64,000 nt of DNA, from the NCBI GenBank assembly GCA_030141605.1, contig JAQGDQ010000908.1:1-64000 (forward strand). The letters are read 5' to 3'. The translations under genes were made by a program, and so were the position numbers. Below are positions 18,058 through 64,000 of this stretch, piece after piece. The notes beneath the pieces were generated by a model that was not told the origin of the DNA, ran no database searches, and saw nothing but the letters and a program-made list of their open reading frames with translations. The DNA is from Tubiluchus corallicola. Lineage: Eukaryota > Animalia > Priapulida. The number at the start of each line of letters is the position of its first letter. Within the stretch, counting starts at the first letter, position 1.

Positions 18058-19051
18058 ATTTACAAAGGGAGCATACATTTTGACAGCATTTGCACTTGCG
18101 ATCACAATGTCTATTGGAGTGATAAAAAATTTTGATTTTGACACCGAGACATTTGAAATTCGCACTAATGAATCCATTATTATAACCAAAAGTAACAGTG
18201 AATGTGGCGAAGCTTGTGATATAAACGCTGAAAATTTTAAAATGTCTCAAGGCCTAAATTACCCTTTGTTACACAAAAGTTTCCACTGCGGATTTCTTAT
18301 GCAAAGGTTGTTTTTAGAAAGGCCAGCAAAGCAGTGGCCACCACCCCGTGAACCACCACCTTCGTTACTTGATGAATTCACAATGCATGGAGCAATGCCT
18401 GTGTTGAAATACAGGTATTTTGCCCAGAAGAGAAAGAATAGTCGACATTATTTTAACGTTGAATTCATTTCAAAATTACAGAAGAAGGCACTAAAGGGTG
18501 AAAACGTTTCTTCCTATGGCATGAAAGGCTTCAAGTTGCTAACTGAAGCTTTAAATGTTTTTAGAGAGGTCATTGAAAGTAAAGATGTTTTAGTAATTGG
18601 TACAGTGAAACCTTGGGTTGAAGCATTACTGCTTAATGCAAACGTAGGTCATATAACAACTATAGACTATAATGAAGACACTTCAACACATCCAAACATT
18701 ACACTTATAGCACCTTGGAAATTAGCGGCACAATATCTTCATGAACCCAAGCCTCTTTTTGATTTTGGCGTCAGTTACTCCTCACTGGAACACAGCGGTT
18801 TAGGTCGCTATGGAGACAACCTAAATCCAGCAGGTGATCTTGAAGCTATGGCTCAAGCTTGGTGTTTGATAAAGCCAAAAGGTATCTTCATACTGAATGT
18901 TGAACATGACAAGGGTAAAAATTATTTAGTATGGAACGCTCATCGTGTATATGGAGATGAAAGGCTGAAACACCTGACTGCAAACTGGAATGTTACCACG
19001 TTACTGCAGGAAGAAAGGCATGTGTTACGAATCATGCAAAAGGTTGAATGA
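18058..19051 (+). CDS. DUF268-family SAM-methyltransferase-like type II membrane protein (main coding exon)
   Basis: Motifs VLVIGTVKPWVE, TTIDY, FDFGVSYSSLEHSGLGRYGDNLNPAGDL, NAHRVYG; N-terminal hydrophobic stretch; ttttgcag acceptor at 18057. A phase-compatible ATGCTGAATAT/gtaagt at 15459-15475 could supply the start (speculative). Confidence 0.85.
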
Positions 19052-29474: not shown

Positions 29475-30623
29475 ATGACTACGAAAAAAATTGCTATAGT
29501 CACTAGTATCATTTTTACTTTAACAATGGCTGTCTTGTATAATTCATGGACCATAAATCCACTGTTAATTGAAGTGAGACGTTTTAACCGGACTTCAGAA
29601 AGAGTTGAAAGCTATTATCCTTCCTTCACTAGTAACCTAACAATTTCACCAACCCGGAAATTAATTTTGTTTTGGAATAAGTTCCACAAGGATGATTTTT
29701 TTGATTTTGGAAAAGGAAGTAAGCCTTTTGAAATGTGTGACGTGCGGGATAGAAATTGTGAAACAACAAATGACAAGACTCGTTTGAATGAAAGTGATGC
29801 AGTTATTGTGCACATGAGGGGCAATATTACTCCTTTCCCTGTTTACCGACCATCTGGACAAAGATGGGTTTTCGTTTTGTGGGAAACGCCAATCAGAATG
29901 TTTCCCTACAAAAAAGGAAAAATCCCAGACTTGTCGCATTTAAATGACATTTTTAACTGGACGATGACTTATCGTCTCGATTCCGATTTTCCTCGCTTAC
30001 ATGGAGAAGTTGTCTTACGTCCTTCACCTCGTGTTGAGATTGTTAAAAATTACGCTAAAGGAAAGGCAAAACTAGTGGCTTGGTTTGTAAGTAACTGCAA
30101 CACCGATTATACTGGACGAATAGAATATGCCAAAGAGTTACAGAAATACATCTCTGTTGATGTATATGGCAAATGTGGCAACTTAACATGTCCGAAAAAA
30201 GACCGTTATTGTGATAAGATGTTAAAACGCGACTATAAATTTTATTTGTCATTTGAAAATTCTTACTGTCGTGACTATATTACAGAGAAAGTTTATAACA
30301 GGTTAATGTTCAGCAATGTGATTCCCGTAGTGAGAGGTGCTGCTGATTACACAAAGTTAACCCCATCACATTCAGTAATCAATACAGCAGATTTTGACTC
30401 AACTAAAAAACTTGCCGAGTATCTCTTGTATTTGGATAAGAACGACACTGCTTATTCACAATATTTTGCCTGGAAGCAGAATTATTCTATAGCAAGAGGC
30501 GCAAATCGAAGCTTCTGCCATTTGTGCAAAAAACTGAATAATCCGACTGAACCAGCAAAAACATACAACATACAAGACTGGTGGGTGAAGCAAGGAAATT
30601 GCATCGAGGTACAAAGACAGTAA
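29475..30623 (+). CDS. Alpha-1,3-fucosyltransferase (GT10), intact single coding exon
   Basis: N-terminal TM, FNWTMTYRLDSD, VAWFVSNC, VDVYGKCG, GT10 motif YKFYLSFENSYCRDYITEK, Y.QYFAW. Confidence 0.95.
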   Translation: MTTKKIAIVTSIIFTLTMAVLYNSWTINPLLIEVRRFNRTSERVESYYPSFTSNLTISPTRKLILFWNKFHKDDFFDFGKGSKPFEMCDVRDRNCETTNDKTRLNESDAVIVHMRGNITPFPVYRPSGQRWVFVLWETPIRMFPYKKGKIPDLSHLNDIFNWTMTYRLDSDFPRLHGEVVLRPSPRVEIVKNYAKGKAKLVAWFVSNCNTDYTGRIEYAKELQKYISVDVYGKCGNLTCPKKDRYCDKMLKRDYKFYLSFENSYCRDYITEKVYNRLMFSNVIPVVRGAADYTKLTPSHSVINTADFDSTKKLAEYLLYLDKNDTAYSQYFAWKQNYSIARGANRSFCHLCKKLNNPTEPAKTYNIQDWWVKQGNCIEVQRQ

Positions 30624-44230: not shown

Positions 44231-47136
44231 CATAGTTTATAGTAGCTACGATAGCCAAGTTATGCTGTCCATAAGCAAAGAATTCTATACTGAGACATTT
44301 AAAACCTTAAATTTATTAAAGGTAAAGAAATTTATTAAAGGACGAAAATGCTTTACATTATGCGTTCAAGGTTCAAATTCAGCATGAATTCAGAACACAA
44401 AACTGGTGGGTACAATTTTGCAAAAATTGACCAAATTTGCAACCTAAGCATTCAGAATGTTCTCAAAATTGATATACATATATCAGCAATACGTTTTTAT
44501 AAGCCCATTCTACTTTTGACGCTTGCCTATAAGTTCTACCGGACTAGATGAAATGATGCCTTATTTAGTTGGTTATTTTAAAACATTATTCGCGGTAAAA
44601 TAGCATTAGAGATAGGAGTTATTTGATGGTAATATACACTGCATATATTCTAATAAGAATAAGAATACACAGGTTTTAAAATACTTCATTACAGCTTATA
44701 ATTATATTCGCATTTACAATATGTTTAGCAAAACGTTAAACCACCAATTAGGGCAAGAATGCCAAATACGGTTGGACAGACAAATTCAGACAAATACGGT
44801 TGGAAATGTTTCCTTTACTTCAAGACTTCCGAAGGAAGAATGCTAGGTAGTGGGTGAATGAGGAGCATGTTTAGCTACAAAAACACATGGCTAATTGTTA
44901 TACCATCACAAACATCATACCTGCTAGCTCCAAAGCAAGGAAATTGCATTCTTGTGTTATGTGCAGTCCTTGTAATTATGAACACAAATTCTAGACACCT
45001 TTATCTCCACCAATTTCTGCAATGCTAGACTTTTTTCTGGACAGGTTAAGAAAATTTGATACTGGTTTGGTTTTTTGGTATTAATTATGCTAATACCAAG
45101 GGCACTCTGATAAAATAAAATAAAATAAAACAAAACAATAAAAGAACTTGGACATTAAATTTGATAATAGAAGTGTAACATTCAAAAATAACTAGTTGAC
45201 AATGTTTCTGACGTGGCCAGAAACTTAACATTTTGCAAACAATAGCTACAGAATTGGGCCATAAAACGGTCACAGCAATTTGCTTGAAAATCATAATTTA
45301 GATTTTGTTCAATACGCGTTGTTGCTTGATTACGCAGCAACTGCACTTCACAACTTTCTACTTTTTAACCAATGACCCTTGTGCAAGGCCACGGCACCAT
45401 TTGGCAACATACCAAATATTGTGGCCCTAACTCAAGAACTGTGGAAGAAGATAGATCCTAAAGAAAAATAAACGAAGTCCTGCATGCTCCATGTCCTTTG
45501 GCCTGGCGATTCGGGTCACAAGTTTAACTACATAACTTTGCCCAGAAAGTGCACCCTGTGAGCTTTCTGTACATTGCCCTCGGCATGTAAAATGTCACCA
45601 ATTGGGGGAAACCCCAAATTTTCCATTTTGGCCCCTTCTTCGGGCGTTTAAAGCTTGCCAGCTTTATAAAAAAACCCATGTGAAAAAAATTGACCACAGC
45701 AAAATCTTAATTACAAATTCATACAACAAATCAGTAACAATATTTAAAAAAACCGTTAGCATAATCACGAGCCTATACACGTATACATATATATCACAAA
45801 TAAAAAAACGTTTCAAATATAGTCATACAGCAGAGCACAATAAATAATCCAATCAGGCTAACATTCTCATACAACTGAAAAGAAAATCAGATTATCATTA
45901 AAGAAACAGTCATCATTAGGAAGAAAGAAAAATATAATTACTCTTAGCTTGTACAACCTTTACAACAACAAAAAGCTAACGTATCTGTCACGTCTCTGTA
46001 GATTGTCAAAGAGAAACAGGATTACCAGACATTTATATGAGAATACTGTAGAAAACGAGTTAAAGTATTTTAAGCAGAATAGACAAGCCTACATGATACT
46101 GTAGGGGTGTTGCTAGTACAGTATTGAGGCGAAGCACGTGATATAAAATGAAACCACAATATATGGAAAGTTAACTGTAGCAATACCGCAAGGGAAGTTA
46201 ATTCCTAGCACACCACTAAACTAATGGGACAAAGTAGTTATTATTTTAAGGCACTTGGGAAATCGTGAACACGATTCGCGACAATCTCATTTTGACTCAT
46301 GATTTGTAAGCCAATCTTTGAGAGTCCAATCAGATCAATTTCAATCCCGTGCTCGATTCCAGGCACGACATTCTTTTCAGCATGCTGAATGGTGTGCAAG
46401 GTTCAATAAGTAGCATACTTACTTCCATAAGTAGCCATTTAAACCCGTTTTTGGTTTTTACATCTTCATTAAAATAAATAAGCCAAATTTTTTATTTAAC
46501 ATTGTGTAGCTGTTTCAGCTATATCAATAGGATTTTCTCTAGTTGATTCATTTTGCACCTCTTGGAACAATTTTAAGTTTTATCTTAATTAAATCAGCTG
46601 TACGTTTAATTTAATTTTTTCCAAAGTAATTTCTTTTTCCTTAATTAAATATCAAGTTTGATCTTTTTCATTATAAATAATTAATAATTGCTCTCATCGG
46701 TTTTTACCTTTTTGATTATTTAAATTAAATTTTGTTTTCCTTTGGCTACTTAAACTGATTTTGTTTGACATTCGCAAATTTATTTTTAGTTGTTTGGATG
46801 TTAATGCAAGTATTGATTAAACGTTTTGCGCAATTCTTCAATTAGTATTTCGTTTAGTAACTCCTTTGGTTTTAGTGAATTACAGTCAGTTTTGTTCATG
46901 TGCATTACCCTTCCGATTTGTAGTTACTCTTGGCCAGTTACGTGAACCTTGTGTTTTCTTCATTATTGTGGCGATTTTGTATAAGCATAACTATAATGTA
47001 GAATTAAAGTTAAAAACGTTTGCGCTACATCTTGCATATAGTGTGTTTTATAATGCTTTCGGGCACATTCGGAAAAGAACAAGCTGCTAATATTGTTTGT
47101 AATCTTCTTTGTTCTTTGAAAAAATTGCGTAAAAAC

Positions 47137-48096
47137 ATGAACTGCTCTCAATCAAAATTCTGCTTTATTTTAAGTTTTATTTGTATTATCGTCAGTTTAA
47201 GCTTGATACATTTTCTGAAGCAAGTGACGTTAATTAACGGTTTCTTCAAAAATAAATCTGAAGTGTGTAATTTTTGTGATTTTATTGTCAGTTCAAGTGA
47301 TTTATTAAAAATTCAGTATGGAACTTTGGCTGCTGATGATAAGCAGTTGTTGGAACACATTAGAAATTGGTGGATTATAGGACCATCTGAGCATCCTGTA
47401 ACTGGAACTGTCACTGATAATTCACAAATACAGCAGTCAACCATCGTAGACAAATTACTCAATCAAAGACAACATGGATTTTACGTAGAATGTGGCGCAG
47501 CAGATGGACATCTCTCCAATTCAATATTTTTTGAAAGAAACCGTGGATGGAAAGGGTTATTGATAGAACCTAATCCGTTATTGTTTAAGAAGTTATTGGA
47601 AAGGAACCGCAATGCATATCACATAAACGCTTGTTTAAGTACAAAAAATACTGCAGAGAAATTAAAATTTGCCATGGCTGGCTTGCTAGGTGGCCTGACT
47701 GAGACAATGGACTCTGATCGGCAAAGTAGATTGACGCGTAAGACCAATGCCACCGGGCTTCAAGTTACAGTAGTACAATGTTTTCCACTCTATTCTATGA
47801 TGCTTGCACTTGGACAAACTCACATTGATTATTTATCTCTAGATGTTGAAGGAGCAGAACTTGACGTATTAAAAACAATACCATTTGAAAAGCTTACCAT
47901 AGATACTCTGACCATTGAATACCGCTCTACTAATGGGGCTCATATTTGTAAGGAAAATACTTTAGCAAAGTTAAAATATATACGTAAATTCATGGAAACA
48001 ACAAAGCTTTATCGGGAAGTTTCCTTATTACCCAATCGAAAGGACGAACTTAGTCAAGATATCGTGTTCATGCGCCATGATACAAAGCCTTCTTAG
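47137..48096 (+). CDS. FkbM/Methyltransf_21 family (Star-like) type II membrane methyltransferase
   Basis: ATG at 47137 then TM; SQIQQ, GFYVECGAADG..SNSIFFE..RGWKGLLIEPNP, QCFPLYS, IDYLSLDVEGAELDVL; intact single exon. Confidence 0.9.
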   Translation: MNCSQSKFCFILSFICIIVSLSLIHFLKQVTLINGFFKNKSEVCNFCDFIVSSSDLLKIQYGTLAADDKQLLEHIRNWWIIGPSEHPVTGTVTDNSQIQQSTIVDKLLNQRQHGFYVECGAADGHLSNSIFFERNRGWKGLLIEPNPLLFKKLLERNRNAYHINACLSTKNTAEKLKFAMAGLLGGLTETMDSDRQSRLTRKTNATGLQVTVVQCFPLYSMMLALGQTHIDYLSLDVEGAELDVLKTIPFEKLTIDTLTIEYRSTNGAHICKENTLAKLKYIRKFMETTKLYREVSLLPNRKDELSQDIVFMRHDTKPS

Positions 48097-51864: not shown

Positions 51865-52435
51865 GAGAGCATCTGCATTGTATTCTGCATTTTTGCCAGA
51901 CCTGTGCTCTATGGAATAATCATGCTGGTCAAGCTTTCTCAGCCAGCGGGCCAGCTGACCTTTGGCTTTTTCAAAGATCAAAGCCAATGCAAGGCATCAT
52001 GATTTGTCCCTATTAAAAACTGGCACTTGAAAAGTAGTGATGAAATGTTTCACTGCCTTTATTACTTCTAATAGCTCGTGCCATTTAGCACAGTAATTTT
52101 GCTCTGCTGGCGAAGGAGCCTAGCAAGTGCCAACAAATTTTTTAGATGCTCAAATAAACGCTGTTTGCTAGTTTGCCAAACAAAAGATGCATAAGTTGAT
52201 AAAGAGGTCTAAATACAGCACTACTTTTTGGACGAGTATGCACTTTTTCGTATTAAGTTTAAGACCAGCTCAGCGGAACTGCTCTAAAACTTCTTGAAGT
52301 CGTAATTAATTTTCATTAAACAATGACATCGTCTAGATAAATTAAAAGTACGCCCATGACGTCTTGCCAGGACTTGTTCCATTAAGCGTTCAAAGGTCGC
52401 CGGCGCGTTTGATAAGCCAAAAGGCATAGATTTAA
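51865..52435 (-). mobile_element. Decayed Gypsy pol fragment (RT and RNase H)
   Basis: [50 protein letters not shown]...NADAL. Confidence 0.9.
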
Positions 52436-54689
52436 ATTGCAAAGGTCTTGGTGTGTAATAAATGCTGTTTTTTCTTTATCTTCTGGTGCCAATTCCACGT
52501 GGTGGTATGTGGGACATGCAAATGAAAATATGACGGATGGAGAGGACGAGTAATACTGTGATGCTGTTGGTCCGATTTATTCTGAGCCTTTGGATTCTGG
52601 TCAGATCTTTTTCTGTAGTTAGTTAATGTTGCAGGTTTTCTATCTGGCTGCCCAGAAGATGGGTATTGCTTTGCAAAATGGCCATTGTAATGACGGCGTT
52701 CCTCGTGGGTGATAGTAATTAGTAACTTATGCAATACGAGAATGAAGCGCACTTAACTTTGGTAACGTAGCGAGACTAATACTAAGGCTTTTGAAATGCG
52801 GAGTTGTCCTTGTGGTTTATGTGTACCTGTTTCTGAATACAAAGTTTACTAAAAGACTAATTAACATTTCAATGCTTTTATTCTACTAACAGACAATATG
52901 AGTGAATCAAGAGAAAAAGAAAAAAAATACATTACAATAGTTAAGGATGGCCATTTCAAGAATTACAGCACGAGTTCTTGGTACCAAACAGTAACCTAAT
53001 AGTAACTGCAGTTTTCACTGTCCATAAGAGTTTGTGCACAAGATATCACCAATTTGAGTAATCACTATTGAGCTCAAAAGTAAACTGTTACTTATCTCTG
53101 GAGTGAGCGCTCACTACGTCAGTCCATTGGCAATCACTGGGGTACTCCATGGAAGGGATACCATCTCCAAAACATCGCATACCACGCTCGACAGTACTAG
53201 GTGCCGGTCCTCCACACCCTGACAACAAGGGCTGGGTTGCTTATACTGTGTAGAAGGCTCAAAGTTGGTCTTTACTCCACTCAATTGCATTACAACACAT
53301 TGTCCATTAGGATAGTATTACACCATTTACAACTGTCCAGGCTTTTTCACAATAAAACACCAGTTCAGCCATTTTCAACAGATAAATTTTAAGTTTGTCC
53401 TCAAAGGTATAAACCCAACATTTTAACAGCTCTCATTTTCCAGACCATTCTACCCACTTCTCAATATCAAAAGCACATTTTCCTGTTACTGGAACAGTTC
53501 ACTACATTCTAGGTAGTTTTATACTTTAGACAGGTAACTGTAACACTATATAGGCTGAATGAGAAAGCAAAACACCCCTGTAATAAAATAAACAAGGCCG
53601 AAGCCAACACACTTTCAAAATGACCTGCATAACACTGACATGTAGGTTACATGTGGGGCAGATATAGTTCATGGGAGCCTGGTACATTATTACAACAACA
53701 GCCATAAAAAATAAAGTAAACAATGCAGGTAGCTTCCTTATACAAAATCAAACTAAGTTAGGCCTCTTCAATCGAACAAAACATTTATCATTGAACAAAT
53801 TGCATAATATAATGTACATAGGTGGTTGCTTGTAATGTGCAAGAACACACTTTAGCCAAGGGGTGGACCTAGTCTGGTCCATCACAGCCATGACCTCTAC
53901 AATTACAGCTCACGAAATTGCCAGTTCTCGAAAAATTTGATCCTTAATCAAACACAGGTTTTTTCTACTCTTTTTTGAAAGTGGTATTACCAGTCTTTTT
54001 TATGACTTAAATTTTTATGACTTTATTTACTCGCTCCTCCCTGATTTTGTTATGGAAATTCATATAATTTCATTAAGGGACTCATCCAGCTTGTAGCTTG
54101 AATTTAATGAGTTGGAAAAGTGAAACCGACAAACTGAGATGTCGCAAGTTAAGTTCAAGAGTTTAGATTTAATAAGCAGAATTGTCGCAATGTAGTGAAA
54201 CTGACAGGTTCAGAATTCAAAGAGGCGCTGTTTACTAGCAGCGTGCACGCCAATTAGAAAACAAGAGAATAAGGTCAGTAGTAACCGTTTGTCACGTGCC
54301 GAGGAAGAAATCAAAAGCGGCAAATCCAGTAGCAGCAATTATTGATCATAAAGTTAGAAATCGAAAGTATTATCCGCTGTCCAGGAGGTAAGATGGCCCG
54401 AGATGGTGCAATACTCAATATTTGCTTTATAAGCTTGAAGAAAGTTCAAGCCACACACACAACGAGGGAGAGTCACACACACAACGAAGGAGAGTCACAG
54501 AGATGACGTGGAGGAGAGACTGACAGTGGTTGCCGATACATTGTTGTTGTGTCTGAGGCATATTCTGCAAGACGTCAGAAATATCGTTAGTCCAGTGTTG
54601 GGAATAAATTTATAAATCGATAATTTGGTAATAAATCTCATGCCTCCCTGATTTTATAAAATAAATTTATTGATCGATATAAGAACTCA

Positions 54690-56111
54690 TCTGCCCAGGA
54701 AGAGCCGTAGTAGGCTTGAGGAGGCCGCAGGAAAACTATTAGGCTCCCAACGGGTCGTCTCCCCCGTCAGGAGCCAACCTTTTGTAACGGAGATAAGCAG
54801 CGTTGTAAATAATAAAATTGTGAATAAAGATAGTGTATGCAATAATTGTAGTAATATGACTAGCAATAAAAAGGGCAGTGATGCGCATAGAGGGTGCCAA
54901 TGTAATTTAAGGGTGTCAAGTGTGAATAGGGATAATTGGGACGCAGTGTGTGCGTTCCGAACTCACAGCTCAACAGGCTGGCAGGAACCATTGGTTACCC
55001 AGCCGACCTGTTTGGTTGAATTAAATGGTAGGCCTACACTTATGCTGATCGACACGGGTGCAGCGACCTCATGTGTGTCGTTAGCATTATATAAATGTCT
55101 AGGAATGGGACCTTGTAAAGCAAGTAGCGTGACTTTGAAGGATGCCTCAGGCACAGTCATGCCGGTAATTGGGTCAAGAGATATTGAAATTTTAGTGACA
55201 GCAAAGTTAGAATTAAGTATCAAATCGTCCGAGTGCAGCAGAATGCCATTTTAGGCATTGATGCACTTCAAGCAATGAATGCCTCGTTAGATTGTGGTAG
55301 GAAATTGATGATTATTGGTAAAAAGGCCTACCTTCTTGCTTTAGATCGAGTGAGTGAGAAAGAACTCGATGTTCTTCTCGCCGATGAGAACACTCTAATC
55401 CCCTGTAACAGTGAGGTAGTGATGCGTACTCGGATTAAGAGGGATAGGCCAAATGGACAACTCCTGTGTGTGGAGATGGCCGAACATGCGCACGTGTTTA
55501 AGAATCGCCCGGACGTTGGGTTCGAGGCCGGTTTAGTGGATGTAGAAGAAGGGCATAGGAGCTCAGTACTCATACGAAATAATTCATGTAGGCCCATAAG
55601 AATTAGGAAGAATTGCGTGATTGGCACCGCGCAAGAAACTATCGTATTGAACGTACATGCAATAGCGCTAGCAAATAAGTGGAACAATAAAAGCGGCTCG
55701 AGAAAAAATTATGGCGTAACTAGTCAACGAAGGTTTCGAGATGATAACCTTCACTGCATGCCCGCACGGAACAAGGGGATTCTGCAGGTTCCCCAGGTCC
55801 CTAATGACCGACGATTAGTGGTGAATGCGATGACTCGCGGCAAGATGCATAATGATAGAGTGCGCAGTAGGGCAGCAGGTAATTATCCACAAGAATGTGG
55901 ACTTAAAGTTCAGTACGATGATAGGGGCGGAATGTTTATGGAACTCCGGGATATAGAAGGCCCCTCGCCAAGCGTTTCAGGCCGTTTCAGAGCTGAACGT
56001 GTATCAGAACCCGAAATCTCACAAGAAGGAGAAGATCTTAGTAGGAGGGGCCAGGAGGGGTCAACTCCTGTGCTTACCTCTTTGCCAGGGGCAACGTTAA
56101 GTCAAGGGCAA
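54690..56111 (+). mobile_element. Gypsy fragment (gag end, aspartic protease, post-protease region), same family as 9450-11570, interrupted by the BEL element
   Basis: LIDTGAATSC, ILGIDAL; shares TLKDASGT.MPVIG and MQQNAILGIDAL.AMNASLDC with the 9.5 kb copy; one frameshift near 55200. Confidence 0.88.
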
Positions 56112-56533
56112 TGTTAAGCACATACACGTTTCCCTACCTATTAAATTTGGTCTTGCCCCTTTAACTGTCATCAGTCATGTGACCAGGTAGTTGGCCAGGT
56201 AGACATTACCTGACATGCAATTCAATTGATATGATGTGAATGTTGTTGTTGATTTCTTATTGTTTTTTCTTGCAAGTTATAAGTGCCAAAACTCAGGGAG
56301 ACCACATGTAAGTGTCTAATTATGTTTATTGAACAACTTTATGCTATTAGAACAATTTAGCTGTCATTTTTTTGTACAATTATAGACGATAATCACGTTA
56401 GCTAATTTCGTAATGTACCTTTATCAAACTTATGTTTTTCATTAAAAACTTATTGCTGTAATTTATTATTACAGATAAAACGACAATTGCTGCATGTTAA
56501 ACATTTGATGTTCTGGAGTTTAAATGTAGTACA
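56112..56533 (+). mobile_element. Candidate 5' LTR of the BEL/Pao element
   Basis: Begins TGT where the Gypsy ORF is cut, ends ACA, AT-rich, internal gtaagt...tacag; partner LTR not in window. Confidence 0.55.
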
Positions 56534-56780
56534 GTTTTATATGCCTCGCCGGGAGTTTCATGTTGCCATTAAGCAGTGACCTTGGTTCAGGCGCAGGAAG
56601 TTTGACATGCTTACCTGATAGCTTTGCTCATTATGGGTTTCTACAGCGTAGCTGGTTTCTACAGGTAAAGCTGCATGAACTCTGTGAACTTGGACGCGTC
56701 AGCTAATGGGCAATAGATGGCGCTTCGGTATTGAAAGGTGATCCTAAAATTTTTAAAGAGCAATTTAATTTCAATTGAAA

Positions 56781-59700
56781 ATGGCATCAGCGTTATTCAC
56801 TAAAAGCGAACTGGAAAATAAAGTAGTTGAAGAGCTGAGGCAAATTCTTCGTAGCATGTCTTTGGCGGTTTCTGGCAACAAGGCAAATTTAGTACAACGA
56901 ATTTTGAAGCAACAGGAAACCGGTCCTTGTATACCAGGCTCTCCAGATGAATCAGCCGATTTATCGCCACCCTCAATAGTAACTGACCAATCCATGCAAG
57001 AGAATCGTAGGAGCGAAAAGTCCACCAAATCCTCGAGTGTGACGTCATCGAAGAAGAGTGCCAAGCTAAGAAACCAAGAGCTTATGATTAAAGAACAAGA
57101 ACTCAAACTCCAAGCGATGAGAATACGACATGAACGCATGCAGAATGAGTGTAGTTCTGAAGATGAACGTGATGAAGACAGCTTTGGTTCTGCAGCTGAT
57201 GTTGAGACCAGGTTAGTGGACCATGGAACATCAGACTCAAAGGTCAAAGCATGGCTAAGGTCAAGGTCAACATACACGGATCCGACAATTAAACATACAC
57301 AACCTACATGCGAAAGCGATGAGAATTACTTGTCTGAAGCCTTTGTTACTCTAGCAACTACTGATAAGTATGCTTTGGGAGCACTTGTTCTTGCTTCTAG
57401 TTTGCATCGCACAAGAACAATGAGATGCTTAGTCATCATGGTAACAGAGGGTATTTCTTGTGATATTATGACACTTTTGAGAAATGCATTTGATTTGGTT
57501 GAACATGTCAGTATTATTGATAGTCATGAGTTTAAAAGGTTACAATTGTTAGGAAGACCAGAACTTAATGTGAGTTTCACTAAGCTACATTGTTGGAGGT
57601 TGACACAATTTAGCAAATGTGTTTTTGTAGATTCTGATACAATTGTATTAGATAATGTTGATGACATGTTTAGATTTAAAGAGCTGTCAGCTGCCCCTGA
57701 TGTAGGCTGGCCAGATTGCTTTAACTCTGGGGTGTTTGTTTACAAACCAAGTATTGATATGTATAATAAGTTAATGTTGTATGCTAAATCAGAATCCTGT
57801 ACTTTTGATGGTGGGGACCAAGGATTATTGAATCAGTTTTTTAAAGACTGGTCAACTAGTTATGAAAAACATTTGCCATTCACTTATAATGCTGTCATTC
57901 AGGGTCGGTACGGATATTTACCAGCTTTAATGCAATTTGGGAAAAATGTAAAAATTGCTCATTTTTTAGGTCAACATAAACTATGGCACTATATTGAACA
58001 CGATTCGCATACAGCTCACGTGGCGCCACCTGTTGGCAAAAAAGGTTATGAATTCGACATAATGAACAAGTGGATACAGATCTTTGATACTGACGTTAGG
58101 CCACTGCTGGAAAACAAAAATATTCGTTTGCCTATGCAGCATCCAAGTTCTGGAAATCAGTGTCTGAATGCATCAGCGTCTGCCTTTATTCCACTAGCGC
58201 ATGGCAGTAATATACTGCGCGAGAATAGGCATGGTTTTAATTCTACTCAACCTACCATTTGTACTGCTAACTTAAGCGACATGCCTAATCAATGCCACCC
58301 ACAGAGCAATGACATGACTATGATAATGAACATCATGCTTGAAGCACAGCGTCAACATACCAACATGTACAAAGCAATGCAACTTCCAATAGCGGAGTTG
58401 GACAAATTTGATGGTAGCGTTCTAAACTTTTGGCAATTCATGAGACGTTTTGAAGCCAACGTCGAGAGCTACACACAAGATGAGGCTGCGAGGTTTCAGA
58501 GATTAATGCAATTTTGCACTGGAAAAGCCAAAAAAGTTGTAGAAAGTTGTAGCTACATGGACCCCAGTCGAGCATACAAGCATGCAAAGCAGTTACTCAT
58601 CGACAGGTTCGGCTCCTCGTTTATGGTTACTCAGGCTTGGATGTCAAAAATAATCGAGTTTGACCAAATCAAGGCCAATGACAACGAGAAGCTGCGAGAA
58701 TTTGCTGACTTACTTTTAAGCTGTGTCGAGACGTTGAAAGCAATGAATAATCTCAGCGAAATTAATACACAGACAAGTCTCGTTCAGATTGTTAAAAAAC
58801 TGCCATACAAATTCCATGATAAATGGAAAGACGTGGTGTCCAGGATAGCAAAACATGAAATCAGAAACCCATGTATTTATGATTTGCTAACATTCATTCA
58901 GGAAAATGCTGAAAAAATGAACCACCCTGTATATGGTAGCCTCGGCGATTGGGAAAAACCTAAACGAAGCATCTTTGCCAAAAATTATGCCACCTCTGCT
59001 AAAACACCTCAAGTTCAAACAAACAATGGCAAGGCGAAAACAAATCAAGAAAAGCCGCAAACCAAAAGCGCCCAATTTTGCAAAAAAGTTTGCATATTTT
59101 GCAACTCAAATGAGCATTCTTCTCTTGGACAGTGTGAAGCTTTTGCAGCTATGGACCCCCCAGCTAAGTTGATGTTCGTGCGTAAGGAACGCCTCTGCTT
59201 TAATTGTTTGGCGAAAGGAAAACATAGAGCAGCTAGATGTTTCAAACCGTCTTGTAGTGTTAATGAATGCAACAAGAAGCATTCAGCTTTATTGCACGAT
59301 GCAGTGGGGAGGCTGAGCAGTTCTTCTTCAGATGTTAATAGGCTTGCCAGGGATGAGCAGCAAAGAAAAGACGAGACTGAAGCTACAAGCTGTGCAAATA
59401 GGGACAGTTCTAAAGGAAAGAAGATAGCATTGCCTATGGTCAAAGTTCAAGTACATGTACATGGAAGAGACCCTGTTGAAGCCATGGCTCTGTTAGACCC
59501 TGGATCTACAAACACGTTTTGTTCCAGGAAGCTGTTTGACAGCATAGGTGCTGAAGGAAAAGAGGATGTTCTTACCCTAACCACAATCGAGAAACGCCAA
59601 AGTAAAGCAGACACTTTAGTTACAAGTTTCGTTGTTACGGACAGCATTGGTGAAAACAGAATCATGTTGCCTCATGTTTTTGTTCGACAATCACTGATGC

Positions 59701-60077
59701 TAGATACAGAATGCTTTGCATCAGTCGCAGATGTTCAAAAATGGCCGCACTTGAAAGAGATAGCGTCATCTTTAGTTGAGTATCACGGACACGATGAAGA
59801 CCTAAGCTTACTAATCGGTCTTGACGTACCTGATGCCTTGGCGCCTCTGCAAGTTAGACGTGGTGTTGTAAACGCTCCTTATGCTGTTAAGACGAAGTTA
59901 GGATGGACGTTGAATGGGCCTATAGCGGGCAGCAAAGTACACAACGTGTCAGTAAATAATTATGTTCTGGTCAAAGAGTCTTCTGAAGCCAAAACAGATG
60001 TCTTGCAGCAGCAAGTCGAGAGATTTTGGAAAATAGATTCTGTTTGGATGATGAGCAGTATTCTAGAGAAGAGATGA
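56781..60077 (+). CDS. BEL/Pao Gag-protease polyprotein with embedded glycogenin domain
   Basis: ATG at 56781; SAP motif; GT8 domain; DUF1759-like Gag core (LDKFDGSVLNFWQF); triple Cys/His knuckles (CIFC..H..C, CFNCL..H..C, C..C.KKHSALLH); protease LLDPGS; AVKTKLGW. Confidence 0.93.
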   Translation: MASALFTKSELENKVVEELRQILRSMSLAVSGNKANLVQRILKQQETGPCIPGSPDESADLSPPSIVTDQSMQENRRSEKSTKSSSVTSSKKSAKLRNQELMIKEQELKLQAMRIRHERMQNECSSEDERDEDSFGSAADVETRLVDHGTSDSKVKAWLRSRSTYTDPTIKHTQPTCESDENYLSEAFVTLATTDKYALGALVLASSLHRTRTMRCLVIMVTEGISCDIMTLLRNAFDLVEHVSIIDSHEFKRLQLLGRPELNVSFTKLHCWRLTQFSKCVFVDSDTIVLDNVDDMFRFKELSAAPDVGWPDCFNSGVFVYKPSIDMYNKLMLYAKSESCTFDGGDQGLLNQFFKDWSTSYEKHLPFTYNAVIQGRYGYLPALMQFGKNVKIAHFLGQHKLWHYIEHDSHTAHVAPPVGKKGYEFDIMNKWIQIFDTDVRPLLENKNIRLPMQHPSSGNQCLNASASAFIPLAHGSNILRENRHGFNSTQPTICTANLSDMPNQCHPQSNDMTMIMNIMLEAQRQHTNMYKAMQLPIAELDKFDGSVLNFWQFMRRFEANVESYTQDEAARFQRLMQFCTGKAKKVVESCSYMDPSRAYKHAKQLLIDRFGSSFMVTQAWMSKIIEFDQIKANDNEKLREFADLLLSCVETLKAMNNLSEINTQTSLVQIVKKLPYKFHDKWKDVVSRIAKHEIRNPCIYDLLTFIQENAEKMNHPVYGSLGDWEKPKRSIFAKNYATSAKTPQVQTNNGKAKTNQEKPQTKSAQFCKKVCIFCNSNEHSSLGQCEAFAAMDPPAKLMFVRKERLCFNCLAKGKHRAARCFKPSCSVNECNKKHSALLHDAVGRLSSSSSDVNRLARDEQQRKDETEATSCANRDSSKGKKIALPMVKVQVHVHGRDPVEAMALLDPGSTNTFCSRKLFDSIGAEGKEDVLTLTTIEKRQSKADTLVTSFVVTDSIGENRIMLPHVFVRQSLMLDTECFASVADVQKWPHLKEIASSLVEYHGHDEDLSLLIGLDVPDALAPLQVRRGVVNAPYAVKTKLGWTLNGPIAGSKVHNVSVNNYVLVKESSEAKTDVLQQQVERFWKIDSVWMMSSILEKR
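57330..58110 (+). other. GYG1: Glycogenin catalytic domain (GT8) inside Gag
   Basis: EAFVTLAT, RPELNVSFTKLHCWRLTQFSKCVFVDSD, ELSAAPDVGWPDCFNSGVFV, FDGGDQGLLN, HLPFTYN, YGYLPA, HFLG; colinear with animal glycogenin. The symbol denotes homology only. Confidence 0.95.
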
Positions 60078-61496
60078 TGGTCATCGATATTTGGGAAAGC
60101 TCAATAACCAGAAGAGACGGCCACTATGAGTTAGAAATACCATTTAAAGGCAAACATAATGTTATTCCTGATAGCTTTCAGATGGCAGCAAAACGGCTCA
60201 ATGGACTCAGAAGAAAATTCACCAAGAATCCCATTCTTCATCAAAAGTACACTGACGGAATCAACGATTTGCTAAACAAGGGTCATGCAGAGCTAGTGGA
60301 AGAACAATCAGCAAGTACTCCTACACATCTGACTTGGTATCTTCCTCACTTCCCAGTCTTTAACGAAAATAAACCAGATAAAACCCGTATTGTTTTTGAT
60401 TGCGGTGCAGAGTGCGAAGGTATTTCACTGAACAAATTGGCTTTGCAAGGTCCTGACCTTACGAATAATTTGGTTGGTGTCCTCTTGCGATTTAGGCAGT
60501 ATCCAGTTGCCGTGCTAGCAGATATACGTGAGATGTATCACCAAGTGTTTGTTTCGCCCAAGCATAGAGATATGCTGAGGTTCATTTGGTGGCCTGAGGG
60601 ACGAATTGACCAGCCTCTTCAGATACTTAGAATGACCGTGCATCTTTTTGGAGGGGTTTGGTCCCCCAGTGCGGCTTCATTTGCCTTGAAACGCACTGCA
60701 TTGGACTACCAAAACAGCTTTGATAAAGAAACGGTAGCAACAGTGCTTTACAATTTTATGTGGATGACTGCCTAAAGTCAGTCGAGAATGTGGACCAAGC
60801 ATTGAAGCTAATTACTCAGCTAAAGCTGCTTTTACAGAAGGGTGGATTTTGTTTGACGAAATGGATGTCAAACGATAAACGTGTTCTCGACACTATCCCA
60901 ATTGAAGATAGGGGAAAAGGTGTTAAAGATCTAAACTTGTCAAATGACACACTGCCAAATGAGCGTGCCTTGGGAATAAGTTGGCAGATGGAGGCTGATA
61001 TGCTAGGCGTCCATGTAAAACAAAAGGAGCATCCCAATACAAAGCATGGATTGCTTAGTTCTCTTTCCAGTGTCTATGATCCCCTTGGAATGTGTGGTCC
61101 ATTTGTTCTACAAGGAAAGAAACTGTTTCAAGAAGAATGTCGTTTACCAGACAAAATGTGGGATAGCAAGTTGGACGGCGCCATAGAGAAGAAATGGAAA
61201 CAATGGAAAGACGAAAGCACACTGTTAACAGATTTCAAGATTGAGAGATCATTCATGCCTCGTGAGTTTGGTAAGGTGATATCCACAGAGCTTCATTATT
61301 TTTGTGACGCTTCTGAAAGTGCTTATGGTGTGGTAGTGTTCATTCGTCAGCAGAATGAGCTCAACGTTATCCACACTGCCTTTGTCATTGCGAAATCAAG
61401 GCTAACTCCGATGAAAGGACTGACTATTCCTCGCCTGGAGTTATGTGCAGCAGCTCTTGCAGCTAAACTTGAAAAGGTGCTATGGAAAGAGCTAAT
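60040..61496 (+). mobile_element. BEL/Pao pol (RT and Pao RNase H), two frameshifts, cut off before integrase
   Basis: WYLPHFPV, RIVFD, GPDL, LLRFR, ADIREMYHQV, LRFIW, HLFG, YVDD, FCDASESAYG, AKSRLTP, TIPRLEL. Confidence 0.93.
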
Positions 61497-64000
61497 GGAA
61501 GTCCTCTGTCCTCTTGGAAGTCCTCTGTCCTTTTGGCTATCTTCAATCCTATAGGAAGTTATCTAGGAAGACATATGTCTTCATGGAATTTCTGTGTCCT
61601 CTAGGAAGTCCTCTGTCTTCTTGGAAGTCCTCTGTCCTTTTGGTTATCTTCAACCCTCTGGGAAGTCTTCTAGGAGATCCTCTGTCCCCGAGAAGTCCTC
61701 TTTCCTCCACAAGTCTTCTGTCTTCTAGGAAGTGCTCTAGGAAATCATCTAGGAAGACCTCTGTCCTTTTGGAAGTCTTTTATCTTCCAGGAACTCATCT
61801 AGGAAATCATTTAGGAAGACCTTTGTCTTCTGGGAAGTCCTCTGTCCTTTTGGCTATCTTCAATCCTATAGGAAGTTATCTAGGAAGACAACTGTTTTCA
61901 AAAAAATTCTGTGTCTTCTTCGAAGTCCTGTGTCCTTTTGGTTATCTTCAATCCTCTAAGAAGTCTTCTAGGAGATCCTCTGTCCTCCAAGAAGTCCTCT
62001 TTCCTCTAGAAGTCTTCTGTCTTCTAGGAAGTCCTCTAGGAAATCATTTAGGAAGACCTTTGTCTTCTGGGAAGTCCTCTGTCCTTTTGGAAGTCCTCTG
62101 TCCTTTTGGCTATCTTCAATCCTATAGGAAGTCAACTAGGAAGACATTTGTCTTCAAGGAAATTCGGTTTCCTTTTGGTGTCCTCTGTCTTCTTGTAAGT
62201 CCTCTGTCCTTTTGGATGTCTTCAATCCTCTAAGAAGTCTTCTAGGAGAACCTCTGTTTCCCGAGAAGTCCTCTTTCCTCTACAAGTCTTCTATCTTCTA
62301 GGAAGTCCTCTAGGAAATCATTTAGGAAGACCTTTGTCTTCTGGGAAGTCCTCTGTCCTTTTGGAAGTCCTCTGTCCTTTTGGCTATCTTCAATCCTATA
62401 GGAAGTCATCTAGGAAGACATTTGTCTTCAAGGAAATTCTGTGTCCTCTTGCAAGTCCTCTGTCTTCTTTGAAGTCCTCTGTCCTTTTGGTTATCTTCAA
62501 CCCTCTACGAAGTCTTCCAGGAGATCCTCTGTCCCCCGGGAAGTCCTCTTTCCTCGACAAGTCTTCTGTCTTCTAGGAAGTCCTGTAGGAAATCATCTAG
62601 GAAGACCTTTGTCTTCTAGGAAGTCCTCTGTCCTTTTGGAAGCCCCCTGTCCTCTACAAAGTCCTCTGTCCTTTTGGAAGTCTTTTATCCTCCAGGAAGT
62701 CATCTAGGAAGACATTTGTCTTCAAGGAAATTCTGTGTCCTCTTGGAAGTCCACTGTGTTTTTTCAAGTCCTCTGTCCTTTTGGATATCTTCAATCCTCT
62801 AGGAAGTCGTCTAGAACGACATTTGTCTTCAAGGAAATTCGGTTTCCTTTTGGTGTCCTCTGTCTTCTTGTAAGTCCTCTGTCCTTTTGGATGTCTTCAA
62901 TCCTCTAAGAAGTCTTCTAGGAGAACCTCTGTTTCCCGAGAAGTCCTCTTTCCTCTACAAGTCTTCTGTCTTCTAGGAAGTCCTGTAGGGAATCAGGGAA
63001 GACCTTTGTCTTCTTGGAAGTCCTCTGTCATTTTGGAAGTCTTTTATCTTCCAGGAAGTCATCTAGGAAGACATCTGTTTTCAAAAAAATTCTGTGTCTT
63101 CTTGGAAGTCCTGTGTCCTTTTGGTTATCTTCAATCCTCTAAGAAGTGTTCTAGGAGATCCTCTGTCCTCCAAGAAGTCCTCATTCCTCTAGAAGTCTTC
63201 TGTCTTCTAGGAAGTCCTCTAGGAAATCATTTAGGAAGACCTTTGTCTTCTGGGAAGTCCTCTGTCCTTTTGGAAGCCCTCTGTCCTCTAGAAAGTCCTC
63301 TGTCCTTTTGGAAGCCCCCTGTCCTCTACAAAGTCCTCTGTCTTTTGGAAGTCTTTTATCCCCCAGGAAGTCATCTAGGAGGACAATTGTCTTCAAAGAA
63401 ATTCTGTGTCTTCTTGGAAGTCCTGTGTCCTCTTGGTAATCTTCAACCCTCTAGGAAGTCTTCCAGGAGATCCTCTGTCCCCCAGGAATCCTCTTTCCTC
63501 GACAAGTCTTCTGTCTTCTAGGAAGTCCTGTAGGAAATCATCTAGGAAGACCTTTGTCTTCTAGGAAGTCCTCTGTCCTTTTGGAAGCCCTCTGTCCTCT
63601 AGAAAGTCCTCTGTCCTTTTGGAAGCCCCCTGTCCTCTACAAAGTCCTCTGTCTTTTTGGAAGTCTTTTATCCTCCAGGAAGTCATCTAGGAGGACAATT
63701 GTCTTCAAGGAAATTCTGTGTCCTCTTGGAAGACCTCTGTCTTCTTGGAAGTCCTCTGTCATTTTGGAAGTCTTTTATCTTCCAGGAAGTCATCCAGGAA
63801 GACATTTGTCTTCAAGAAAATTCTGTGTCCTCTAGGAAATCCTTTATGAACTTTTCTGTCCTCCTGGAAGTCCTCTGCCCTTTTGGAAGTCATCTAGGAA
63901 GTCCTCTAGGGAATTGTTTAGGAAGATTTTGTCTTGCAGGAAGTCCTCTGTGTTTTTGGAAGTTCTCTGTCTTCTTGGAAGGCCTCTGTCCTTTTGGATA
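61497..64000. repeat. Satellite array of ~20 bp subunits with ~255-320 bp higher-order blocks
   Basis: Recurrent ggaagtcctctgtcctttt/cttcta; landmark ggctatcttcaatcctataggaag at about 61535, 61852, 62108 and 62382; continues past the window end. Confidence 0.95.

Follow-up and report, generated by a model that had tools for sequence, protein, structure and literature searches.

Host-derived domains have been retained by several retrotransposons with long terminal repeats (LTRs), among them the Burro elements of planarians (PMC6431247), rotifer elements whose extra open reading frames (ORFs), the ORF3s, are enzymatic (PMC5408684), and elements such as BEL1-I_SM in a Repbase survey of protein incorporation, which reports purifying selection in 8 of the 24 cases that could be tested (PMC3597677). 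Template switching onto mRNA is a described route for such captures, as in LTR-mediated retroposition in animals (PMC5131818), and the BEL/Pao group of LTR elements has been treated in PMC3118150. Here we describe a stretch of 64,000 nucleotides from the priapulid Tubiluchus corallicola (contig JAQGDQ010000908.1, positions 1 to 64,000; hereafter the window), in which a BEL/Pao element at 56781..61495 carries the catalytic domain of a glycogenin within its gag-protease frame.

Glycogenin is the self-glucosylating protein on which glycogen is begun. The glucose chain on the cellular protein is 8-12 residues long, and a synthase-binding C-terminal tail recruits glycogen synthase (PMC9188544). Roles for Tyr195, Tyr197, Asp160, Trp128 and the C-terminal tail of glycogenin are set out in PMC12267440 and PMC9188544.

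A glycogenin catalytic domain within a Gag polyprotein

The glycogenin domain at 57330-58112 is not a free gene but an in-frame part of the gag-protease ORF, and this fusion to Gag, in place of the free domain that the original prediction had treated, changes its likely meaning. Glycogenin homology stops near 58112. Because similarity to BEL Gag proteins picks up again at ORF residue 464 in the alignment of relatives, the end of the insert lies between residues 445 and about 462.

The residues that the original prediction had singled out are where it placed them. Lys85 (AAG, 57582), Asp101 and Asp103 (GAT, 57630 and 57636), Tyr194 (TAC, 57909) and His211 (CAT, 57960) have codon offsets of 85, 101, 103, 194 and 211 from 57330 and align with the residues of rabbit glycogenin-1 (expect value, E, 4e-84), to which the domain is 53% identical. 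The FNSG (57720) and DGGDQG (57807) motifs are likewise intact. An insertion of a single residue near 157 is made good by the loss of one near 177, so that DGGDQG is displaced by one position (offsets 160-165). Altogether the domain has kept Lys85, Asp101, Asp103, Trp127, Asn132, Asp159, Asp162, Gln163, Tyr194, Tyr196, His211 and Lys217, and the dimer-contact stretch around Trp127 is kept in full; the residues just ahead of Tyr194 have changed.

Conservation was gauged against 128 non-redundant cellular domains, drawn from 240 retrieved proteins. In 77 of the 84 columns with 95% conservation or more the domain has the majority residue, as it does in 24 of 37 at 80-95%, in 28 of 58 at 50-80%, and in 9 of the 46 below that. 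Its median identity to the cellular domains is 56.5%, against 65.5% for the cellular domains among themselves. Position 218 is leucine in the window copy only, and proline in 128 of 128 cellular domains and in the contigs of three sequencing runs.

Structure prediction, proposed earlier as a check, returned a glycogenin-type GT-A fold. The AlphaFold2 model, built from a 95-row alignment, has a predicted local distance difference test score (pLDDT) of 84 and a predicted template modelling score of 0.86, and its lowest-pLDDT stretches are the lid, acceptor arm and C loop. All 40 of the best Foldseek matches are glycogenins, and the top one, with a template modelling (TM) score of 0.87, is the rabbit form cut at residue 270. 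The absence of a C-terminal synthase-recruiting motif also held up: a hidden Markov model (HMM) of the synthase-binding tail matched neither the ORF nor, at E<=10, anything in a six-frame translation of the window, and it does match 118 of the 128 non-redundant cellular homologues (43 of which were used to build it). Because this tail is missing, the protein is classed from its sequence as a glycogenin catalytic domain rather than as a full glycogenin. The parts of the element are as follows.

56091..56663, no strand assigned: high-copy stretch 5' of the ORF by contig depth; candidate LTR
56781..60077, plus strand: ORF of 1098 codons ending at a frame break near 60040, in the order SAP, linker, glycogenin domain, linker, BEL/Pao Gag core, zinc knuckles, protease (ORF list, Pfam and relatives)
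56826..56909, plus strand: SAP domain, residues 16-43 (Pfam)
57330..58112, plus strand: glycogenin catalytic domain of glycosyltransferase family 8 (GT8; Pfam Glyco_transf_8), residues 184-444, intronless, in frame and without the synthase-binding tail (Pfam, alignment, model and Foldseek)
57630..57638, plus strand: DxD motif, Asp101-Ser-Asp103 (alignment to rabbit)
57909..57917, plus strand: acceptor Tyr194 and Tyr196 (alignment)
57960..57986, plus strand: stretch from His211 to Trp219 (alignment)
58164..58193, plus strand: motif that we take to be PAM2-like, in the linker after glycogenin, marking the return to element sequence (comparison with BEL relatives)
58407..58838, plus strand: DUF1759, the BEL/Pao Gag core, residues 543-686 (Pfam)
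59091..59297, plus strand: Cys-His zinc knuckles, two found by pattern and a third read between them
59490..59507, plus strand: aspartic protease active-site motif (motif and BEL relatives)
60074..60775, plus strand: reverse transcriptase with 55% identity to that of a BEL relative and a frame break near 60755 (alignment)
60865..61495, plus strand: remaining reverse transcriptase and Pao Peptidase_A17 (RNase H region), truncated by the satellite (Pfam)
61496..64000, no strand assigned: 19-base satellite that interrupts the element copy (repeat analysis)

A Gag with DUF1759 and Cys-His knuckles is followed by protease, reverse transcriptase and RNase H (Peptidase_A17) in the BEL/Pao order, with two frame breaks in the pol part of the window copy. 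By this domain content the element is a BEL/Pao LTR retrotransposon, in a window of animal type with about 35% G+C. The SAP domain appears to be element-derived, because one also heads the BEL relative P0254, which has no glycogenin. Of 45 BEL relatives, 4 carry a motif similar to the one at 58164..58193, likewise upstream of Gag's core. No integrase or DUF5641 was seen after RNase H in the window copy, which is cut off by a satellite that extends to the end of the window, and no second LTR was found within the window. Self-pairing of more than 9 letters was absent from 55900-56800, where the LTR itself is undefined.

A family of copies

The stretch is present in four sequencing runs from two studies. 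The runs referred to below are X1, which is possibly the source of the window itself, X4, which comes from a separate study, and X5, from a third; a further run, X6, possibly of RNA, gave no contig over the stretch, which speaks neither for nor against expression. One X4 contig (56506-57606) spans the junction from SAP to glycogenin and another (57816-58516) the junction from glycogenin to the Gag core, with a one-base gap at 58404 by which that copy is broken. In X1, a gap-free contig with nine differences (57304-58177) spans the 3' junction and reaches 26 letters past the 5' junction, and an 87% identical copy, in which five bases are missing from the alignment as a gap, takes in the beginning of the domain. 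X5 has a gap-free, intronless contig of 591 letters (57356-57946) from a copy 93% identical to the window. In X4, short contigs bearing adapter ends stack up sharply in mid-domain, at 57580-57850, where depth is very high, looking like the product of an amplified or reduced library.

Copies at about 99%, 93% and 87% identity are thus spread over three studies, some of them broken in or after the domain. Depth in X1 is about 1050 for the main family and 170-200 for diverged copies, which hints at several copies, depth not being equal to copy number. From these contigs, what is seen is a family of element copies of different age, in which the fusion is family-wide.

The window copy is probably a decaying or damaged member of this family, given its leucine at the invariant Pro218, its two pol frame breaks and the satellite cut. 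The main contigs of the runs are without the two breaks, and those of three runs continue past 61493 with other sequence (160-190 letters) and not into the satellite. All three runs differ from the window at six sites, three synonymous and three non-synonymous, one of the latter being the leucine at Pro218; such a mix is as expected for a copy drifting since insertion. The private Pro218Leu is probably damaging.

Purifying selection on the domain

The original prediction had argued for purifying selection from the absence of stop codons. The conclusion stands, on a ratio of non-synonymous to synonymous substitution rates (dN/dS) of about 0.1 against a divergent copy, and the argument falls. 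The domain is part of gag, a frame that has to remain open regardless of any role of the domain, so the lack of stops proves nothing. The chance of an open 261-codon frame is in any case 0.22 at 5% neutral divergence and 0.05 at 10%.

The estimate comes from the 591-letter X5 contig, which differs from the window at 44 sites. Of these, 33 were listed and 31 could be classed, in the stretches 57356-57585 and 57740-57916 that this contig alone covers. The classed differences comprise 22 synonymous and 9 non-synonymous changes, giving a dN/dS of 0.10-0.14 according to the transition weight (binomial p 1e-6 or less), and not the value near 1 that had been named beforehand as telling against the idea. 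When the same changes were placed at random with stops forbidden, 22.0 +/- 2.4 non-synonymous changes were expected, and none of 20000 draws gave 9 or fewer. Two further listed differences are both synonymous. In the worst case, with all 11 unlisted differences counted as non-synonymous, such changes would number 20 of 44, compared with an expectation of about 31 (hand arithmetic). All nine non-synonymous changes fall in columns less than 75% conserved, and the Tyr194 codon differs only synonymously. Purifying selection on the domain between divergent copies is supported by these sequence comparisons.

Origin and age of the capture

Capture from a cellular gene, as originally proposed, is supported by host-like codon composition. 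Three single-ORF genes of host type in the window served for the comparison of codon composition.

18107-19051, plus strand: DUF268 gene (Pfam)
29475-30623, plus strand: GT10 fucosyltransferase gene (Pfam)
47053-48096, plus strand: FkbM methyltransferase gene (Pfam)

The G+C fraction at third codon positions is 0.295 in the domain, compared with 0.327 in these three genes (p 0.34) and 0.40 in the rest of the element (p 0.0016). The terminal branch of the domain is 1.2-1.5 changes per column long, compared with 0.14-0.15 for the median tip, and with so long a branch the domain takes no firm position in the quick trees that were built (one of which left out 10 long rows).

Two further contigs carry glycogenins of cellular type. 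A 206-letter contig in X1 matches 57586-57625 and then shows the cellular majority residues at positions 100, 102, 105 and 108; beyond the matched part, 14 of 30 letters differ from the window, and 5 of 6 shared residues use another codon (hand count). A 1065-letter contig in X5, matching 57681-57739, holds a second, AT-rich glycogenin of cellular type that shares 4 of 20 flanking residues (hand count). At position 116, which is arginine in 90% of cellular domains, this second sequence and the element both have an aromatic residue. The X5 glycogenin may belong to the lineage of the donor, or else to an element family that is further removed. Over most of the domain no cellular exon aligned at 80%, which is no proof that there is none.

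The synonymous distance between the window and the 93% X5 copy is about 0.2-0.3, and the comparison with the cellular-type copy is saturated. The capture looks old if these cellular-type glycogenins are host genes. The domain was probably acquired long ago from a spliced host mRNA through template switching, and LTR-mediated retroposition is, by analogy, the probable route.

Proposed function and competing explanations

The reading that we favour is that this family equips its Gag particle with a self-glucosylating appendage, and self-glucosylation by the family seems fairly probable. The analysis shows the fusion, the fold, the catalytic and acceptor residues, the loss of the tail, several copies and purifying selection; the steps described next are inferred. 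In retroviral Gag, the N-terminal arm faces outward. If BEL/Pao Gag is arranged in the same way, the glycogenin domain, on a flexible arm ahead of the Gag core, would be displayed at the outer face of the shell. Neighbouring domains could then dimerise and prime each other in the presence of Mn2+ and uridine diphosphate glucose (UDP-glucose), transferring glucose from UDP-glucose onto their own Tyr194 and yielding particles that bear short alpha-1,4-glucan chains. Lacking the tail, the domain would not recruit glycogen synthase directly, and a mixed dimer with tailed host glycogenin would supply a tail.

The benefit can be suggested only tentatively: a primer coat or mixed dimers might tie the particle to host glycogen granules and so localise or shield it. 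A fuller picture is that of a capsid-glycosylating retrotransposon, whose particle is a multivalent glycogen primer that is built into host granules via mixed dimers and so rides into the germ line or hides from defence; this we consider rather unlikely.

Several findings weigh against self-glucosylation or against the strength of the selection argument. Human GYG2 keeps the acceptor tyrosine and contact residues and shows little self-glucosylation (PMC12267440), so kept residues do not prove activity. Of 102 columns with conservation of 90% or more, 11 are altered in the element domain, compared with 7 substitutions in the most divergent of the 128 cellular domains. They include Asp67Glu and Thr82Ser in the lid and the leucine at Pro218; the acceptor arm has Ser195Gly, and the C loop has diverged. 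A test of the column pattern against neutral decay was weak (P 0.06-0.08). The dN/dS value comes from one sequence pair, without a matching value for gag, and could stem from the need to fold; moreover, of the 44 differences in X5, 11 are unlisted, those near the DxD motif among them. The X5 contig 57356-57946 does not reach gag, and another X5 contig runs into linker-like sequence (58020-58125, with a loose end that matches the element linker in 17 of 20 letters by eye).

The same drift in the lid, acceptor arm and C loop, together with the GYG2 precedent (PMC12267440) and the intact dimer-contact stretch at Trp127, could mark a docking module with little or no catalysis, which would pair with the glycogenin of the host or bind sugar, thereby tethering Gag, or would damp host glycogen priming. 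This is nevertheless unlikely, as the metal ligands, the two aspartates of DGGDQG, Lys85 and the tyrosine acceptor have been retained over a very long branch, and Thr82Ser retains the hydroxyl. Thr82Met, a crystallised glycogenin mutant according to the titles of the Foldseek matches, is reported to be inactive, and serine at position 82 to be tolerated, with the rabbit enzyme staying active. An enzyme that still transfers glucose could also have found another useful target, such as other regions of Gag, a protein of the host's defences or a small acceptor molecule. Loss of the tail severs the link to glycogen synthesis, the related GT8 enzyme Skp1 galactosyltransferase glycosylates another protein, and the residues just before Tyr194 are changed, all of which would fit such a switch. 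We regard it as improbable, since Tyr194 and Tyr196 are kept, the X5 change in the Tyr194 codon is synonymous, and the best sequence and fold matches are all glycogenins. If the domain were instead a passenger, selection would keep only its frame and fold, because a misfolded insert would poison Gag. The weak column test, the presence of the conserved pattern already in the donor and the ability of folding alone to lower dN/dS speak for this. A model that requires only an open frame was, however, rejected by the 20000 draws, catalytic residues not obviously needed for the fold are kept, and a useless 783-base insert would have had to persist over the synonymous distance to the X5 copy, and since saturation with respect to the cellular-type copy. 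The odds against a mere passenger are somewhat longer still.

Two further explanations concern what the locus is and not what the domain does. The gag-protease frame alone is long and open in the window, with pol broken and cut, as might be seen in a host gene in the making, a domesticated SAP-glycogenin-Gag protein selected for the animal and not for the element. This is very improbable: the main contigs are without the two pol breaks and continue past the satellite boundary, copies exist at three levels of identity, some of them broken in or after the domain, and the window copy has its private Pro218Leu. Finally, the single genome assembly and the failure to find the fusion in protein collections might raise the suspicion of an assembly chimera between a host glycogenin cDNA or gene and a retrotransposon. 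That notion is largely refuted, and hardly credible, given that X4 contigs from a separate study bridge both junctions and that the third study has the 93% intronless copy.

Search for other fusions and significance

A whole-ORF HMMER scan of 1.84 billion representatives gave 16626 matches, and none of the best 150 (top score 388 bits) covered both parts. Word-indexed searches likewise returned no element domains in the best 120 of 699 proteins of 603-1922 residues, the best 120 of 2852 of 176-560 residues, or 10 of 10 longer ones. Overall, 373 proteins were examined, 312 with GT8, 61 with a BEL part and none with both, and six cluster members added later were the same; a fused protein might still sit within a cluster that a different sequence represents, and masking of elements of this sort by gene callers is common. 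Six long proteins in which GT8 lies internally (P0315, P0320, P0325, P0330, P0350 and P0367) were considered as candidate fusions and set aside, as they have no element domains. A glycogenin-like gene of baculoviruses was not confirmed by searching and is given no weight here. Five BEL relatives (P0276, P0281, P0286, P0347 and P0383) have 480-590 residues ahead of the Gag core with no Pfam match there, which may be other cargo.

Literature searches by title and start of abstract, outside subscription papers, gave no report of a glycogenin-Gag fusion, and supplementary file 3 of the Repbase survey lists neither glycogenin nor PF01501 (PMC3597677). That LTR elements take up host domains is already known, and no earlier case was found in these searches of a sugar-transfer enzyme that is fused to Gag and kept by selection, let alone one that would prime itself.

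If the domain is active, it would link the particle biology of a retrotransposon to glycogen metabolism, provide a natural test of a tail-less glycogenin in a cell, and make it easy to measure, by a +162 Da ladder on a single tyrosine, in what way captured cargo benefits a mobile element. An inactive domain would still be a clean case of cargo held at a dN/dS near 0.1 within an otherwise fast-changing part of Gag.

Surroundings of the element

Just upstream, at 54670-56117 on the plus strand, lies the remnant of a second retroelement, with a gag-type aspartyl protease (Pfam E 5e-7) followed by a 294-codon frame without a Pfam match. A minus-strand fragment at 52300-52620 resembles, by eye, a Gypsy-type reverse transcriptase. 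Positions 1-284 and 1231-1514 form a 284-base inverted repeat, 99% complementary with 946 bases between, that resembles the ends of a small DNA transposon. The satellite at 61496-64000 has higher-order periods of about 107, 274 and 312 and a very high depth in the sequencing runs.

Comparison with known systems

The closest enzyme is glycogenin-1 (GT8, EC 2.4.1.186, rabbit and human GYG1; PDB 1LL2, 3V8Y and 1ZCT), with which the element domain shares the fold, the DxD and histidine ligands, Tyr194 and the dimer contacts. In extent the domain approximates the crystallised rabbit glycogenin cut at residue 270. It differs from glycogenin-1 in having no tail, in being embedded in a Gag polyprotein, and in the drift of its lid, acceptor arm and C loop. 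Human glycogenin-2 likewise keeps the acceptor tyrosine and contacts and has a changed C loop, but unlike the element domain it retains a tail that binds glycogen synthase, the enzyme on which it acts (PMC12267440).

The remainder of the element is that of an ordinary BEL/Pao retrotransposon, with DUF1759 Gag, Cys-His knuckles, protease, reverse transcriptase and Peptidase_A17 in the same order. Its nearest named relatives are from Patiria miniata and Lineus longissimus, with 34-39% identity over Gag-protease among the top matches listed, and a GT8 domain is present in none of the 61 relatives examined. As in LTR-mediated retroposition of mRNA, an intronless sense-strand host sequence lies between two parts of an LTR element, here in frame; the retrocopies described in PMC5131818 are young, whereas this insert appears to be old and to travel with its family under selection. 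Cargo described for Burro, the rotifer elements and the survey elements has apoptosis, ubiquitin, nuclease, esterase or envelope functions, often in a separate ORF (PMC6431247; PMC5408684; PMC3597677), while the element described here carries a predicted self-modifying sugar enzyme ahead of its Gag core.
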